Assembly (NCBI GenBank): GCA_963555825.3
Contig: CAUVXB020000002.1
Location: 480,001-544,000 of the forward strand
Reading direction: 5' to 3'
DNA: 64,000 nt
Source: Alphaproteobacteria bacterium
Lineage (GTDB): Bacteria; Pseudomonadota; Alphaproteobacteria; JAAXGF01
The notes beneath the pieces were generated by a model that did no database searches, was not told the origin of the DNA, and worked only from the letters and a program-made list of their open reading frames with translations. Below, piece by piece: positions 43,668 through 51,615 of this stretch. The position numbers were made by a program, and so were the translations under genes. Within the stretch, counting starts at the first letter, position 1; each line of letters begins with the position of its first letter.

Positions 43668-44028
43668 CGTGGACTCCTTTCAAGAAAACATTGGTCTGGG
43701 GCCTATCGAAAGGCTAGCCCGGATTTCTCACCATAGACAGGCGCGTCATCGCGTCGGGCGGTCGCCGATCCGCCAGGAGAAGGACGCAGAGCGTGGCCTG
43801 GGCCACGGTCAAGGCCTTCGACGCCGCGGGCGGCCCGCCCGGCGCGACCCGAAGGGCGGCGGATCTCGGACGACAGGCCGCGTAAAAGCGCTTGCCCGAT
43901 GCGGCAGCATCGCGCCGCGCGCTTTTCCTAGCCTGTCGGCCGATATCCGCCGTGCCGCACCTGTCCTTGGCGAGAAAGCCGGGCTAGGCAGCAAAGGCGG
44001 GAATGTCGACCAAGATCATTACCGCTAG

Positions 44029-45390
44029 TGATGCGGTGGACGGCTCCCACCCGCAGGCATCTAGGTGCCAAAATGGTGGTTTCGATGAACCACAGGGAAA
44101 TAGGAGCCGTCCATGAACGAAGTTATCACGATCGGTGTTGATCTTGCGAAGAACGTATTTCAGGTGCATGGCGTTGACGCCGAGGGAACCGTGGTCGTCC
44201 GCCGTCAGTTGAGGCGGCGTCAGGTGCTGGCCTTCTTCGAGAAACAGCCGCCCTGCCTGGTTGGTATGGAGGCATGTGCGACCGCGCATTACTGGGCGCG
44301 GGAGATCGCGGCGCTTGGGCATGAGGTCAAGCTGATGCCGCCGCGCTATGTGAAGCCCTACGTGAAGCGGAACAAGAATGACGCTGCCGATGCGGAGGCT
44401 ATTTGCGAGGCCGTCACGCGCCCGACGATGCGCTTTGTCGCGGTGAAGAGCGTCGAGCAGCAGAGCGTTCTGATGCTGCACCGAACGCGCGAGCTTCTGG
44501 TCCGCCAGAGAACCATGCTGGTCAACGCTACGCGGGCGCACATGGCGGAGTTCGGGGTGGTGGCGCGAACCGGGTTGCCGCAGGTCAAGGAGCTGCTCGC
44601 GGTGATCAGCGATGAGGCGGATGAGCGCATTCCGCCCCTGGCGCGGACTTGCCTGGAAGGGCTGGCGCGGCAGTTGCTGTCGCTGGAGCGGGAGATCGTC
44701 GGCGCTGAGAGGCGTATCCACGCCTGGCACCGGACGAACGAAGAGAGCCTGCGTCTCGAAACCACACCCGGCATCGGACCGATCACGGCGAGCGCGCTGG
44801 CATCTTCGATTGCCAATCCGTCGATCTTCAAATCGGGCCGCTCAATGGCCGCTTGGATCGGGCTGGTGCCAAGACAGAACTCGACCGGTGGCAAGGAGCG
44901 CATGGGGCGGATCTCCAAGCAGGGCGATCAATACCTGCGCTGGCTGCTGGTCGCCGGCGCCATGACGGTCATCCGCCACGCCAAGCGACGCGGCACGACC
45001 GATCCATGGCTTGCCAACATCATCGCCGACAAGCCGACCAAGGTCGCGGCCGTGGCGCTGGCCAACAAGAACGCCCGCATTGCCTGGGCGCTTCTGAGAC
45101 ATGGCGGAACCTATCGCAGGCCCGCGACGGCCTAGGCCGACGAAAACAAGGCGTTCACGAGTTTGGCGGAGTGTAAGTGACGTAATGCAAAATCGGTCGA
45201 ACCGAGGATCGGGAAAACCCGCTATAGCCACGGCGCCTCGAGCGCGTGCTTATGACTGGGACCCGACCCCGCGGATCGCATTAGGGCCAGCGGCCATGTA
45301 CGCCGCACCAAAAGGCCGGACACATGGCAGCACCCGACCAGCTTGCATCAACGTCACAAAATCTCTTGCCAACAGGGGGCCGTCCACACA
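44029..45390 (+). mobile_element. IS110 family (IS1111-type) element B, recombinase 44113-45135, apparently intact
   Basis: IGVDLAK, MEAC, KND.ADA, GLVP.Q.STGG; subterminal IRs GTGGACGGCTCC / GGGGCCGTCCAC lying 7 and 3 nt from the ends. Confidence 0.93.
45160..45375 (+). ncRNA. Predicted bridge/seek RNA of IS110 element B
   Basis: 3' non-coding end homologous to that of element C, with flank-matching variable segments. Confidence 0.75.
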
Positions 45391-45411
45391 TGGCTATGTG
45401 TGGACGGCCCC

Positions 45412-45630
45412 GATTTGGCAAGGGTTGTTTTGACGGTCATGCAAGTTGGTCGGGTGCGGCTATGTGTCCGGCCTGTTGATGCGGTGCTCTTGACCGCTGG
45501 CCCTAATGCGATCCGCGGGATCGGGTCCCAACTAAACCCACGAGCTCGAGGCTCCCTAGCCATGACGGGTTTCTCCGATCCCCGGTATTCGACCGGTCTT
45601 GCATTACCTCACGATCACCCTGCCAAAGGG
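45412..45630 (-). ncRNA. Predicted bridge/seek RNA of IS110 element C
   Basis: Inverted homolog of 45160-45375. Confidence 0.72.
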
Positions 45631-45634
45631 TTTA

Positions 45635-46811
45635 ATACCAGTGAGCCTATGAAATCACCTTCATGATCCATGGATAGGCGCAGAGGGTTCGCATACGATC
45701 CGGTTCTGCGATGAGGTCGATCCATGCTTGGCAACAGGCGTCGATGATGGCCTCGGTGTCGTCGAGGACGCGGAGCGATAGGAAGCGTTCGCGTAGGTAG
45801 AGCCAAACCCGCTCGACGGGGTTGAGTTCGGGACTGTAAGGCGGCAACAGCGCCAAGGTGACGTTGTCGGGGACGGTGAGGGCGCGCTCGTCGTGCCAAC
45901 CGGCGCCGTCGCACATCATGACGGCGTGCGCATCCTGGTCCAGGGTATCGGCGAAGTGTGCGAGAAACAGGTCCATGACCTTGGCGTTGACGCTCGGCAT
46001 CACCAGGGTGACGTCGTCGCCGGTGTCCGGGCGCACGGCGGAGAAGATGTAGGCCCACTGGTAGCCGATTTGACGCGTCCCGGGGGCACGCTCGCCCCTG
46101 CGCCACCACCGGTGACACACCCGGCCCTTGTTGCCGACGCGCGCTTCATCCTGAAACCACAGCTGTAGGCGCTTGTCGGGATGCGCCGCGGCGGTCGCCT
46201 TCAGGATGTCGCGAAGCCCCCTTTTTTGAAGCGCTCCTGCGCTTCGGCGTCCCTTCGCGGGTGGCTCGGGCGCGCCTTCTGGCGGGAAAATCCCATCCGC
46301 CGTAGAACCCGGGTCATGCTCGAGGGGTGGTAGGTCTTGGCGAAGCGCTCCTCCAGCCAGCGGCACAGATCGGCCCGGGTCCAGGCGCAAACCCCGTCGC
46401 GCTCAGGCTCCGGCCCGGCGATGATGACCGCCGCCAGCGCCGCTTCCTCGTCTGCCGTCAGCCGCCGCGGCGAGTAGCCCTTTGGACGGTCGTGAAGCCC
46501 CTCCAATCCCTTTGCATTGTAACGAACAACCGCGTCGCGAAGCGTTTGGCGATCCATCCCCGCAAGCCGCGCGGCATCAGCCCGGGGCATCTCCTCCAAA
46601 GCATTCGCGATCCCATAGGCCCGCGCCGCCGCTCGACCGTACGATTCCACGCGAGCCCAGCGCCGAAGCTCCAAAGGCGTCAAATCATCCCGTATCTTGA
46701 GTGCTGATCCCATGACATCCCCCACATCTGGTGGGAGACCATAGAATCACAATCCGCCATCATCCGCCATCAATGAATATCCCGAGAGTCAATTCAGGCG
46801 CTCACTGGTAT
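45635..46811 (-). mobile_element. IS630 family element (two ORFs joined at an A6G slippery site)
   Basis: IRs ATACCAGTGAGC/GCTCACTGGTAT; WFQDEAR, DGAGWH, PYSPELNPVE. Confidence 0.92.
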
Positions 46812-47857
46812 CAGGCGTCTGTCTCAAGCGGCGGTGACTGCTGGCTGACGGTAGGTTCCACCGTTGGCGAGCAGCGCCCAGGCGGTTCGTGCGTTCTTGT
46901 TGGCCAGCGCCACGGCGGCGAGCTTGGTCGGTTTGCGCGCCATGAGATCGCCCAGCCAGGGGTTCTTCTCGAAGTTTGATCTTCGCCCGTGGCGTATCAC
47001 CGTCATGGCGCCGGCGACGAGCAGCCACCGGAGGTAGTGGTCACCCGCCTTGGAGATGCGGCCGAGCCGCTGCTTGCCGCCGGTCGAGGTCTGTCTGGGC
47101 ACCAGACCGATCCAAGCCGCCAGTTCACGCCCCGATCTGAACACCGAAGGGTCGGCGATCGAGGCCGCCAGCGCACTCGCCGTGAGCGGTCCGATGCCGG
47201 GAATGGTCGCCAGACGTTGGCTGACCTCGGTCGCTCGATGCCAGGCATGAATGCGCTGCTCGGTGGTGGTGATCTCACGCTCCAGCGATAACAACTGCCG
47301 CGCCAGTCCTTCCAGGCATGTCCGTGCCAGTGGCGGGATGCGTTCATCGCCCTCATCAGCGATGACCGCGAGGAGTTCCTTCACCTGCGGCAGCCCGACC
47401 CGGGCGACAACCCCGAACTCCGCCATGTGCGCGCGGATCGCATTGACCAGCATGGTCCGCTGCCGGACCAGGAGTTCGCGCGTCCGGTGGTCCATCAACA
47501 CGCTCTGCTGCGCGGCCGTCTTGACCGCCACGAAACGCATCGATGGCCGCGTTACCGCTTCGCAGATCGCTTCGGCATCCGCCGCGTCGTTCTTGTTGCG
47601 CTTGACGTAGGGCTTCACGTAAGCCGCCGGCATGATGCGCACCTCATGGCCAAGCGCCCCGAGTTCCCGCGCCCAATGGTGCGACGTCGCGCAGGCCTCG
47701 ATACCGACCAGACAAGCCGGCTGCTTGCTGAAGAACGGCACAACCTGGCGGCGCCTCAGTTGCCGGCGGATCACGGTCTCGCCTGAGACATCGACCCCGT
47801 GAACCTGGAAAACGTTCTTCGCAAGATCAAGTCCGATCGTGTTAACCTCGGTCATAG

Positions 47858-48962
47858 CTTGCCTATCCGGTTAACGCCCATGACCGCTACATGTAGGGTG
47901 CCGCCACTCTCCCGAGTAAAGCTCGGCATAGGTTGGAGCAGAGGTGTCGCCCGCGATGCCGAGCAATGAGCGGAAGGCGTTGAACGGGTAGAACCGCCTG
48001 TTGAAGCGGAAGGTGAACTCGTTGAGGTAGGCTTGTAGGTGCTGGTGGCTAACGCCGTGGTGGATACCGATCAGCCACGTCTTCAGGTTGGCGAAAACCA
48101 GATGGATGATCGGCAGGTATTGCTCGGCAACCTCTGGATCACCACACTCGGCAACAGCGAAGTGCTCATAGCCGCGCTTACCGAGGCCAGCATAGCCGCT
48201 CCAATCGTCAGTAACGATCAGCGATCCCGGCGCGACGGTGCTCTCGACGAACCCACAGAGCGACTCGGCGCTACGGTCGAGCACGACGGCGAGCCGAACG
48301 CGTCCGGCATAGCGTCCGTCTTTCCGGTTGTCGAGCTTGGTGCCCGGCTTTCGATGACGCACCTCGATGGCACAGGAGACGAGAACCTTGTGGTGAACAC
48401 CACGGCCTTCCCCACGCGTTCGCCCGCCAACCCAGGTTTCGTCCACCTCAACATGGTTCTTGGGCTGTCCACCGATCCTGTCTTGGTTGGGCCGCACCAT
48501 GCCCGAGCGGAGCTTGTGGAGAATTTGAAAGGCCGTCTCGTAGCGCGAAAGACCAAGTTGCCGCTGAAACTGCACGGCGGACATGCCGGGCGTCTGACTG
48601 GCGACCAGATAAGCGGCCCAGAACCAGACGTTCAGCGGAGTGTGGCTACGCTCCATCACTGTTCCCACCGTCAGCCCGGTGTTCTGGCGGCACTTGCGGC
48701 AGCGCAGGACGCCAGGGCGGTTTTCAAAGTGGAACGGCTCTCCCGCCGTGCCGCAGTGCGGGCAGGCAAAGCCGTCTCCCCAGCGGGCTTTCTCCAGGTA
48801 GGCGGCGCAGGCCGCATCATCGGGGAAAAGTCGCTGGAACTCGGGTAGCGAATGCGGGAATGGGAGATCGGCGCGGTCGAGAACATCCATGGCGCGCTCC
48901 CCTATATCCGGTTTGCGCCCATTCTAGCCCTAGTGGGTGTGGGTGTAAACCGGATAGGCAAG
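47858..48962 (-). mobile_element. IS1595 family element (transposase 47871-48890)
   Basis: IRs CTTGCCTATCCGGTT; 8-bp TSD GGTCATAG; Zn ribbon CPHC..CRKC, VEVDET, TDDW, YLNEF.FRFNRR. Confidence 0.94.
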
Positions 48963-49020
48963 GGTCATAGGACGGCTCCTTTGTAAGTGATCAGCCAACA
49001 GCTACCACTTCTGGCACTTA

Positions 49021-50183
49021 TACCAACGGCACTAATTATTGACCTGAAATCGCCCAATCTCTCATTCCGATGGACATGATCGTCTCGGGCTGGTCGATTA
49101 GTTTGTTCCAGGCTTGGCAACCGGCCTCGATGATGGCGTCGTAATCTTCGAAGACGCGGTTAGAGAGCCAATTCTGGCGGAGGTATTGCCAGATGTTCTC
49201 GACCGGGTTCAGCTCGGGCGAGCGCGATGGCAGCAGGATGATGGTGAGGTTCTTGGGGACCTTGAGCTGGTCGGTGCTGTGCCACCCGGCGCGGTCCATC
49301 AGGACGACGCCATGGGCCTTGGCGGCGACGTTGCAGCTGATCTCGTCGAGATGCATCTGCATGGCGGCTGTGTTGGCGAAGGGGAGCATGAGAGCGGCAC
49401 CCTTGGCTCCCATGGGACAGATTGCGCCAAAGAGGTAGGCGTTCGTGTAGCGCTGATCGGCGGGCAGGCGTGGCCTTGTTCCCTTCTTCGCCCAAATGCG
49501 CACACGCCCGTTCTTCTGTCCCAGCCTGGCCTCGTCTTGGAACCAGATCTCGACCCGCTTGGTCTTGGGCAGACCGGCTAGGTGGGCAGCGAGCGTGCGG
49601 GGGAAGTTTTTTTGAACGCCTCGATCACCCGCTGGTCCTGCTTGGGGTGCTGCGGCCGGGCGCTGATGTGGGAGAAGGACAGCGCGACGAGAAGGTCGGA
49701 GATCGCCCGCTCGCTATAGATCACGCCAAAGCGTTCTTCGATCACCCGTTTCAGGCGCAACCCGCCGCCAGCGAACCACACCGTCAATCTCTGGATCGGG
49801 GCCCGTTTCGACGATCACCGACAGTTCGCCCATCTGCTCGTCGGTCAAGAGCCGGGGGCGGCCCGCACCGGGACGGTTCTTCAAGCCGTCTGCCCCTTCA
49901 TCGTTGAAGCGGTGCGCCCAGTCTCTCAGCGTCTGGCGATCCATGCCGCCGACCTTAGCGGCTTCCGCTCGGCTCATGCCGTCGTAAACCGCCGCCAAGG
50001 CCAAAAGCCGGCGAACTTGGCGGGGATCGCGACTGTGCTTGGCCAAACACCGGAGCTCAATGCTGTCGTAGTCGTCCCGAAGAGCAATGCATACTGACAT
50101 GGCGAATCTCCTTCGCCAGCCTTGAATCACATCCAGCCCAAAAAGGGAATCCCTTGCGAGTCAGAATTTTGCGCCGTTGGTAT
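49021..50183 (-). mobile_element. IS630 family element with an extra frameshift near 49760
   Basis: IRs TACCAACGGC; TA flanks; WFQDEAR, DRAGWH, SPELNPVE. Confidence 0.9.
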
Positions 50184-50337
50184 TAGATGCCGTGTGGGGC
50201 CGTCCACCCCATTATACCCGGACTCGATGGCCGCACCGGAACGATGACCGCTTTCGGACGAATAGCCGACATACGGCGCCGTTTCCTGCTTTCGAGCCCC
50301 GTCAAATTTCAAACTGAAGCACTACCGGCGCCGTCTC

Positions 50338-51513
50338 ATACCGACTCCGCCTGAATGATTCGGTTGCGACGGATTCCCGTTGGAATCGGAAAGGGTTAGG
50401 ATCCGTAGTCATGATTCGCGGAGGGGCGGGACATGGCGCATGTCGAGGAACATTTGCAGCTTTCTGAGTTGGAGGGACGGTATCGCTCGGCGTCGGAGGC
50501 GACGGAGGCGCGGCACTTCCAGGTGATCTGGCTTTTGGCCAAAGGCCATACGGTTCGCGAAGTGTCGGAGATGACGAGTTTCGGCCAACGCTGGCTCGAA
50601 CAATTGCTTTCTCGCTACAACAAGCTCGGCCCGTCGTCGCTGGGCGATCGTCGACGCTCGAACGGCTCCGAGGCGACGATCCTGAAGCCGGAAGTCCTGG
50701 CGGTGTTGAAAGAGCGCCTGAAAAAGCCGCCGGCGGACGGCGGCTTGTGGTCTGGGCCGAAGGTGGCGGCTTGGATGGCGGGCGAACTGGGCTTGGAGAC
50801 GGTGGCGCCGCAACGGGGCTGGGAGGCGCTGAAGGCAGTCGAGTGGAGTTTGCAGGTGCCCAGGCCGAACAACCCCGGGGCGGCGAGCGAGGAAGAACGC
50901 CAGGCGTTTAAAAAAAACTTCACCGCCTGGTCGCGGAAGAAGCCGAGCGCCACCCCGGCACGCCGATCGAAGTCTTCGCCAGCGACGAACACCGGCTCGG
51001 TCTGAAGCCATTGGCCCGGCGCTGCTGGGCGCCGCGCGGGATGCGCCCGGTGGCGCTCGGCCACCACCGCTTCAAATGGCTCTACGTCACCGCCCTCGTC
51101 TCGCCGACCAGCGGAGAGACCTTTTGGTACATCTCCAATTGTGTCTCCAAGCCATTCTTCGAGAAGCTGCTCGCCCTCTTCGCCCGCGAGGCCGGCGCTG
51201 GGCAGAGCCGCATCATCATCCTGGTGATCGACGGCGCCGGGTGGCACACGGCGCCGAACCTCACGGTGCCGGAAGGCCTCCACCTCGTCTACTTGCCGCC
51301 CTATACGCCCCAGCTGCAACCGGCCGAATGTCTCTGGCCCGTACTCGACGAGCCGGTCGCAAACAGACACTTCGAGACCATCGAGGAACTCGACGCCGTC
51401 GTCGCCCGGCGCTGCCTCACTCTCGATGCCAATCCCGAACTCTTCAAGGGGCGTATCGACTTCCACTGGTGGCCCAAAACCATCTATCCGAACTGATCAG
51501 CCGGATGCGGTAT
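50338..51513 (+). mobile_element. IS630 family element (orfA from 50433, orfB to 51496)
   Basis: Imperfect IRs ATACCGACTCCG/CGGATGCGGTAT; TTTAAAAAAAAC slippery site; DEHR, DGAGWH, PYTPQLQPAE. Confidence 0.9.
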
Positions 51514-51615
51514 CACGGCCTTTCACAAGCGCGTGTCGGCACGCCCCGCCGGCTTCCCTCGCGCGCGTCGGATGCGCTAGGCTGTGCCCGACGCGAAAAC
51601 AACGAGGTTGCCGCG

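Follow-up and report, generated by a model that had tools for sequence, protein, structure and literature searches.

The closest described relatives of the elements treated here are ISEc11, ISPa11, ISKpn4 and ISPst6, insertion sequences of the IS1111 group that carry a seekRNA (Siddiquee et al. 2024, PMC11187229), and IS621, the element of the IS110 group with a bridge RNA (Durrant et al. 2024, PMC11208160). In the latter study a right-end bridge RNA was predicted in 93% of IS1111 elements. The present analysis concerns two elements, B and C, in a stretch of 64,000 nucleotides ("the window") from an alphaproteobacterium for which the habitat label in public runs is "sponge metagenome". The genome (G000) has a size of 6.04 Mb and consists of two contigs, C1 and C2; the window is G000:C2:480001-544000. 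B and C are very probably two paralogous IS1111-group insertion sequences, each with a DEDD recombinase and a bridge/seek RNA (having a target loop and a donor loop) in its right end, that were inserted separately into overlapping targets on opposite strands. The pair is a case of natural guide reprogramming within the RNA-guided IS1111 kind, which is already known, and involves no new mechanism.

Like the seekRNA elements of PMC11187229, B and C have a DEDD transposase of 330-350 amino acids, a long non-coding region 3' of its gene, subterminal inverted repeats, and close relatives with different targets. They are unlike those four elements in their targets, which in this sponge-associated alphaproteobacterium are loops of the TGGCTA type and the end of a ~120-bp repeat, and they are known here from sequence. 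The use of opposite strands of one site by two paralogs is particular to B and C: no mention of it was found in the available part of PMC11187229, and a literature search found no paper joining IS110 elements with a tail-to-tail arrangement. With IS621 the pair shares target and donor internal loops, each reading both strands about a 2-nt core, and the covariation of guide and target among orthologs. It differs from IS621 in that the RNA is situated in the right end instead of the left, the order of the top- and bottom-strand guides is reversed, and the subterminal repeats are longer (PMC11208160). ISPpu9 of Pseudomonas putida is likewise an IS110-family element, and it targets palindromic repeats (PMC12288879).

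The locus is organized into the following parts.

44029..45390, plus strand: element B, IS1111-type, 1362 bp with one copy of the TG core (44029-44030); has further genome copies and is delimited by an uninterrupted paralogous site
45391..45396, no strand: spacer TGGCTA, consisting of the B core TG, then GC, then the C core TA; natural end of the ~120-bp repeat that continues at 50215
45397..50214, minus strand: element C, IS1111-type, ~1.36 kb long without the three insertion sequences nested in it, with one copy of the TA core (50213-50214)
50215..50330, plus strand: remainder of the ~120-bp repeat that bears the shared target at its end; about 12 copies, 80-86% identity, the uninterrupted copies ending ...GGGTG, TA, GCCA

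The right end of B (...CCGTCCACACA) ends at 45390, and the right end of C (reverse complement TGTGTGGACGG...) begins at 45397. A preliminary description of this DNA had placed the two elements tail to tail with their right ends 6 bp apart across TGGCTA; all the strings that it noted were found in their places, and the boundaries are independently confirmed by uninterrupted sites. Uninterrupted copies of the ~120-bp repeat finish ...GAGTCCGGGTG, then TA, then GCCA, matching the left flank of C followed by TGGCTA, which is therefore the natural continuation of that flank. Upon removal of both elements a coherent site is left behind. For the B copy at G000:C1:170054-171415, an uninterrupted paralog of its site lies between C1:2008559 and C1:2008560 and has a single TG, whereas the occupied site has TG at each end; B thus measures 1362 bp including one core copy. 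Uninterrupted sites of the C type carry a single TA. Both elements, like other members of the IS1111 group, share a core dinucleotide with their target and produce no conventional target duplication. The core is TG or TA, unlike that of IS621, which is CT.

The ~120-bp target repeat has no Rfam match. IS4321 and IS5075, IS1111-family elements whose insertion point is fixed within the terminal repeats of Tn21-family transposons, resemble B and C as members of the family that enter the end of another repeated element. They differ in that the target of B and C is the end of an uncharacterised ~120-bp repeat, used by two family members from opposite strands.

Assignment to the IS1111 group is based on the transposases and on the ends of the elements.

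44113..45135, plus strand: B transposase gene, 340 amino acids; PF01548 and PF02371; NF033542 at 350.6 bits
46824..47855, minus strand: C transposase gene, 343 amino acids, intact; PF01548 and PF02371; NF033542 at 339.6 bits
44036..44044, plus strand: B left subterminal inverted repeat GTGGACGGC, the reverse complement of 45379-45387
45379..45390, plus strand: B right subterminal repeat GCCGTCCAC with the terminal ACA, read from the sequence; the repeat itself is 45379-45387

The IS1111-type identity proposed for both elements in the preliminary description is borne out by these domains, by scores well above the cut-off of 140 bits for NF033542 (IS110 family RNA-guided transposase), and by an identity of 79% between the two transposases. 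Both proteins are within 330-350 amino acids and have a DEDD (RuvC-like) N-terminal domain and an IS116/IS110/IS902 C-terminal domain. The C-terminal motif GL-P----S/T-G, given for the IS1111 group in section 6 of PMC11187229, reads IGLVPRQNSTGG in B and IGLVPRQTSTGG in C in the protein alignment. The non-coding ends of B comprise 84 nt before the gene and 255 nt after it, the longer downstream region being as in the IS1111 group. The subterminal inverted repeats of B are 9 bp long, within the 7-17 bp of the group, and lie 7 and 3 nt from the ends; C has the same repeats. The organization of the IS110 group proper (IS621 type) was not found, the 84-nt left end having no match to the RNA model and the RNA being in the right end. 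All sequence-testable defining features of the IS1111 group are present in B and C. In a quick tree of the transposases, B, C, a third family of this genome (D) and seven homologs form one clade with three guide classes; a single origin of the TA core is not shown by this tree, in which two changes are needed and one remains compatible.

Each right end contains a predicted RNA with four guide segments.

45207..45331, plus strand: predicted core of the B bridge/seek RNA, a target-binding and then a donor-binding stem-loop, from the RNAalifold consensus; ends approximate
45223..45230, plus strand: B right-target guide TATAGCCA, pairing with top-strand TGGCTATA; covaries with the right flank among homologs
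45248..45254, plus strand: B left-target guide GCTTATG, in the same sense as the left flank and core; covaries among homologs
45277..45283, plus strand: B left-donor guide CGCATTA, which pairs with the left end TGATGCG except for one mismatch; agrees with left ends position by position
45320..45326, plus strand: B right-donor guide ACACATG, equal to the last five bases of the right end and the core TG
45456..45580, minus strand: predicted core of the C bridge/seek RNA, from the RNAalifold consensus; the minimum-energy fold of C reproduces the two-loop consensus
45557..45564, minus strand: C right-target guide CATGGCTA, pairing with bottom-strand TAGCCATG
45533..45539, minus strand: C left-target guide GGGTTTA
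45504..45510, minus strand: C left-donor guide CGCATTA
45461..45467, minus strand: C right-donor guide ACACATA

The two RNAs differ at 7 of 15 target-guide positions, at 1 of 14 donor-guide positions and at 17 of 96 other positions (target versus rest, Fisher p = 0.019). The differences are concentrated in the target guides, in agreement with the earlier remark that the non-coding ends diverge where guides are expected. The donor segments had also been said to track the TG and TA cores; in fact, three guides (right-target, left-target and right-donor) track the core, in B, C and D alike. The right guide of B matches TGGCTATA at 8/8 positions on the reconstructed empty site and at 7/8 with C present, while that of C matches TAGCCATG at 8/8 positions with B present and at 6/8 on the empty site. 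The left segments match their flanks at 5/7 (B, GCTAGTG) and 6/7 (C, GGGTATA) positions. The other B copies sit at right flanks of TGGCT... or TGGCA..., and the left flanks of B copies before TG are GCTAG, GCTCA, GCTTA and TGTA. The top strand is read by B as TG+GCTATA and the bottom strand by C as TA+GCCA. The two right guides are reverse complements over their first six bases, confirming that B and C read opposite strands of one overlapping site, as had been suggested. Contigs from two other samples (public runs X5 and X8) follow the B scaffold to 45221 and then continue with TTTGGGTCA, a D-type right-target guide; natural variants therefore differ exactly at the guide.

The preliminary description had named covariation of guide and target across homologs as a check on the guide assignment. 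With the B transposase as query, 80 homolog loci were gathered, and a right-end profile (nhmmer) was built from eight copies in this genome. A homologous right-end region was present at 78 of these loci and absent from L046 and L105. Three loci ended too early; the remaining 75 were aligned with 8 rows of this genome, and 73 were kept once L057 and L060, which had misaligned ends, had been dropped. The reverse complement of the 5' loop segment matched the core and right flank at 7.31 of 11 positions over 58 distinct pairs, compared with 5.44 +/- 0.17 upon permutation, and positions 3-11 alone gave 5.48 against 3.79 for the same pairs. The 3' loop segment matched the left flank and core at 6.06 of 9 positions over 62 distinct pairs, compared with 4.89 +/- 0.10. 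In all three comparisons, and hence on both sides of the site, 0 of 10,000 permutations reached the observed value. The five terminal bases of the right end are repeated in the 3' donor segment in 73/73 rows, and the core of that segment agrees with the flanking core in 69/73. Within the right guide, matches to the element's own flank occur at a frequency of 0.86-0.95 at positions 1-6 and of 0.53, 0.45 and 0.40 at positions 7-9, where matches across pairs occur at 0.32, 0.33 and 0.29. Six contiguous matches is the commonest class (17 of the 58 pairs); 13 pairs have seven and 13 have eight or more.

The RNAalifold consensus of 47 sequences consists of two stem-loops, each with a large internal loop, and has 24 pairs, 11 of them with compensatory changes. 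The 47 were taken from 65 distinct sequences, omitting forms of 186-191 nt with an extra insertion, four variants of this genome and some near-duplicates. In the RNAs of B and C the segment complementary to the top strand is 5' of the bottom-strand segment, the same order as that reported for IS1111 seekRNAs in section 9 of PMC11187229. Covariation, identity of donor segments and ends, consensus structure and the known segment order agree, so that the four segments of each element, which the preliminary description had put forward with their sense, are correctly placed. A scan of 43000-51500 with Rfam gave no match at the gathering score; three sub-threshold matches to microRNA models lie where the two facing right ends form a hairpin.

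The targets of the homologs are often hairpin-like (ATGTCCGCTT, a loop with TGGC..., then AAGCGGACAT), and an exact inverted repeat of at least 7 nt joins the left and right flanks in 14 of the 73 rows. Both strands of such targets can therefore offer a left half-site. The homolog targets seem to belong to a hairpin-type repeat that is widespread in Alphaproteobacteria. Across many unrelated genomes (L031-L110) the left flank is close to ATGTCCGCTTn, a conservation that extends far beyond the 5-nt guide.

B and C would each have been inserted, in what appear to be independent events, by RNA-guided recombination of a circular copy into the shared target ...CCGCTAG-TG-GC-TA-TACCCGGAC... at the end of the ~120-bp repeat. 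B would read the top strand, using the left guide GCTTA+TG, the core TG and a right guide that pairs with TGGCTATA. C would read the bottom strand, using the left guide GGGTT+TA, the core TA and a right guide that pairs with TAGCCA and up to two further bases. The right ends would face each other across TGGCTA because the two crossover dinucleotides are 4 bp apart. Owing to the reverse complementarity of the right guides over their first six bases, any site in which suitable left half-sites enclose TGGCTA would be a double target, and the pairing would be expected to recur.

Such recurrence is observed. The genome contains five further copies of B, four of them 99.9-100% identical, agreeing with the window copy except at one base, and one being a 97% variant, as well as four more full copies of C and one fragment. 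The same 28 nt that form the junction in the window are found at C2:1017016-1017043 (spacer C2:1017027-1017032), where copy C_1017 faces an 11-nt remnant of a right end across TGGCTA. A third junction is present in a metagenome contig of 1060 bp (L129), in which a TA-core element and a TG-core element, the latter with only 72.6% identity to B, are likewise set face to face over TGGCTA. Of nine TA-core copies seen, three (C in the window, C_1017 and that in L129) thus abut a TG-core right end, and the TGGCTA junction is a recurrent result of overlapping targets. Among 401 genomes of the class the pattern was found only in the window's own genome, at two places, and in none of the 400 others. 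A scan of metagenome contigs for facing right ends gave eight contigs, of which only L129 is a true pair, the other seven being unrelated perfect palindromes. Tail-to-tail candidates in L033 and L110 were also rejected; they have short flanking strings resembling a right end that are not followed by a right-end RNA region.

Two of the further copies are unusual in their flanks or guides. The C fragment (C2:594727-594898) lies after GCTTA and then TA, fitting a guide of the type found in copy C_2450. The 97% variant of B (C2:1504945-1506302) has a D-like 5' end and occupies a D-type target, TGACCCAG, yet carries the guides of B.

Element C is interrupted by three insertion sequences.

45638..46808, minus strand: IS630-type element no. 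1, between the C transposase gene and RNA gene; TA duplication at 45636-37 and 46809-10; PF13358 and helix-turn-helix domains
47858..48962, minus strand: IS1595 (ISXO2-like); PF12762 and PF12760; 8-bp duplication CTATGACC (strand of C) that includes the C start codon
49021..50183, minus strand: IS630-type element no. 2, in the 5' untranslated region of C; ends approximate to 2 bp

Contig joints skip IS1595 (47849 to 48963, with 8 shared letters) and IS630-type element no. 2 (49017 to 50184). The joints that skip each nested element come, in four public runs, from C-type sequence without that element, which fits copies C_1013 and C_1017, both of which lack nested elements. IS630-type element no. 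1 has 67 full-length copies in the genome, 41 of them identical. It has entered the same TA in three of the five C copies, in both orientations (window 45636-46810, C2:1068137-1069312 and C2:2450682-2451863); this TA is an IS630 insertion hotspot that parts the gene of C from its guide RNA. In both nested IS630-type elements the transposase gene comprises two overlapping frames with a slippery, A-rich run at the join (46221-46228 and 49607-49613 on the minus strand), an arrangement that looks like programmed frameshifting rather than decay. A third IS630-type element (window 50336-51516; 14 full-length genome copies, 9 identical) lies just inside the ~120-bp target repeat. On the other side of the locus, a 275-bp repeat at window 43712-43990 ends ~38 bp before B. 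It has 50-57 covering copies in the genome, with ~93% identity in the best matches listed, occurs also in the related genome G004, and looks like a miniature mobile element.

Four of the six B copies are followed by head-to-tail arrays of right-end fragments (C1:169598-170053, C1:2233731-2234568, C2:1402805-1403874 and C2:2097960-2099652), as are elements in L068, L101 and L104; the B copy in the window has no such array. The units measure 71, 96, 134, 139, 296 and 872 bp, and each extends from an internal TG to the true right end. The 139-bp unit begins at the TG of the DNA for the left-target guide and the 71-bp unit at the TG of the right-donor guide. The guide-coding DNA of the element therefore seems to act as a pseudo-site. 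ISPpu9 forms several kinds of circle from alternative ends, and an end module of it is present in tandem or as solo copies (PMC12288879). Its extra module is a separate small-RNA gene with look-alike ends of its own, whereas the extra units here are nested right-end fragments starting at internal TGs.

Several observations weigh against two RNA-guided insertions, each directed by the guide that the element now carries. The evidence for the B/C junction in the window is the assembly itself and the recurrence of the junction at other places, since none of the contigs listed from the public runs (X1, X3, X5 and X8) spans 45390-45397, the longest stopping at 45394. Three copies do not match their own guides: C_1013 (C2:1013043-1014403) has the left guide GGGTTTA and sits after GCTCA and then TA, C_2450 (C2:2450450-2452989) has the left guide GCTTATA and sits after AGGTG and then TA, and B_C2b likewise fails to match. 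The RNA of an element is therefore not always what placed it, and these misfits, taken with the C fragment and the 97% variant of B, suggest either guiding in trans between copies or recombination among family members. Five or fewer contiguous right-guide matches are seen in 15 of the 58 homolog pairs, in part owing to slippage of the alignment in loops of unequal length. Folding of single sequences does not outdo that of shuffled ones (z = -0.45 and -0.80), and a promoter scan found no promoter-like site. Both RNAs were read from the DNA, and their production and use are presumed.

The two right ends could also have been brought together by rearrangement, through homologous or recombinase-mediated exchange of right ends between loci, or by misassembly of what is a 230-bp imperfect palindrome. 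The genome is rich in repeats, the identical 28-nt junction is present at two loci, and the lack of a spanning contig is in keeping with such an origin. However, the right part of the site minus both elements matches uninterrupted copies of the ~120-bp repeat exactly where expected, each left flank fits the respective left guide, and an unrelated metagenome contig has the same arrangement with diverged elements, all of which makes rearrangement or misassembly highly improbable. For the separate insertion of B and C into overlapping targets, the order of the two events stands at about even odds. Empty or singly occupied alleles, for which a search had been advised, were not found in 40 related genomes, in the contigs of the four public runs (of 24 listed, all available as contigs) or in metagenome contigs. 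The unique left flank is present in 0 of the 40 relatives (none of the same genus), where only the 275-bp repeat matched; the run contigs, which cannot show absence, have no joint skipping B or C as a whole; and a 22-nt piece of the left flank gave 0 matches among the metagenome contigs.

The preliminary description had taken the 8/8 and 6/8 matches of the C right guide as a hint that B came first. The counts are confirmed, but they do not establish the order. Had B been first, the right guide of C would have read across the new junction (TAGCCA and the first TG of the B right end), and C-type elements would home to sites occupied by TG-core elements. Guide complementarity would favour this order by roughly 7-10 to 1, as estimated from the per-position frequencies, which at positions 7 and 8 exceed the background, and from the classes of contiguous matches. 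The three of nine TA-core copies that abut such a right end point the same way, and C_1017, which has no private substitution and faces only an 11-nt remnant, suggests that a TG-core element was there earlier. However, copy C_1067, whose right end is 100% identical to that of C and whose RNA gene is the same, lies at TAGCCATG with no B adjoining, so that the 8/8 match of C does not need B; the six matches available on the empty site are the commonest class among homologs; and the complementarity stops at base 8 instead of extending deeper into the end of B. Insertion of B first, with homing of C-type elements to the occupied site, is on balance unlikely. C may instead have entered the empty site, pairing through six contiguous bases, and a recently active B may have followed, pairing through seven; this is a reasonable possibility that falls somewhat short of an even chance. 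The B copies are alike but for one base, indicating a recent burst, and C looks older, with ~7-9 private substitutions and three nested insertion sequences as against one and none in B. Both C on the empty site and B on the C-occupied site would be ordinary events by the match lengths of the homologs. The guide complementarity is opposed to this order, and the signs of age form a weak clock. The nested insertion sequences do not order the events, because they are themselves recent, with many further copies at 99.8-100% identity, and one occupies the hotspot found in three of five C copies; dating by private substitutions is suggestive only, because the copies are mosaic and transposition may be conservative. 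It is conceivable, though quite doubtful, that the TA-core lineage arose from the TG-core lineage by a strand flip and prefers to home beside the right end of a resident relative. Its right guide would read TAGCCA and the first bases of that end, and the nearby subterminal repeat may help to recruit the recombinase. This is favoured by the identical 6-bp spacer in the three TA-core copies that abut such an end. If true, it would be a case of element-to-element recognition among RNA-guided transposons, the guide being directed to a junction that only the insertion of a paralog creates.

The locus and the other copies in the genome form a natural series of close recombinases (79% identity and above). 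The series keeps the scaffold and the donor guides, alters the target guides and the core (TG or TA), and so reaches both strands of one site. Bridge/seek RNA recombinases are under development as programmable tools for genome insertion, and the series supplies ready-made, evolution-tested guide variants for one scaffold. It also gives the natural extent of pairing between guide and target, positions 1-6 nearly always matching and positions 7-9 about half the time. Action of guide RNAs in trans between copies is suggested by those copies that disagree with their own guide.

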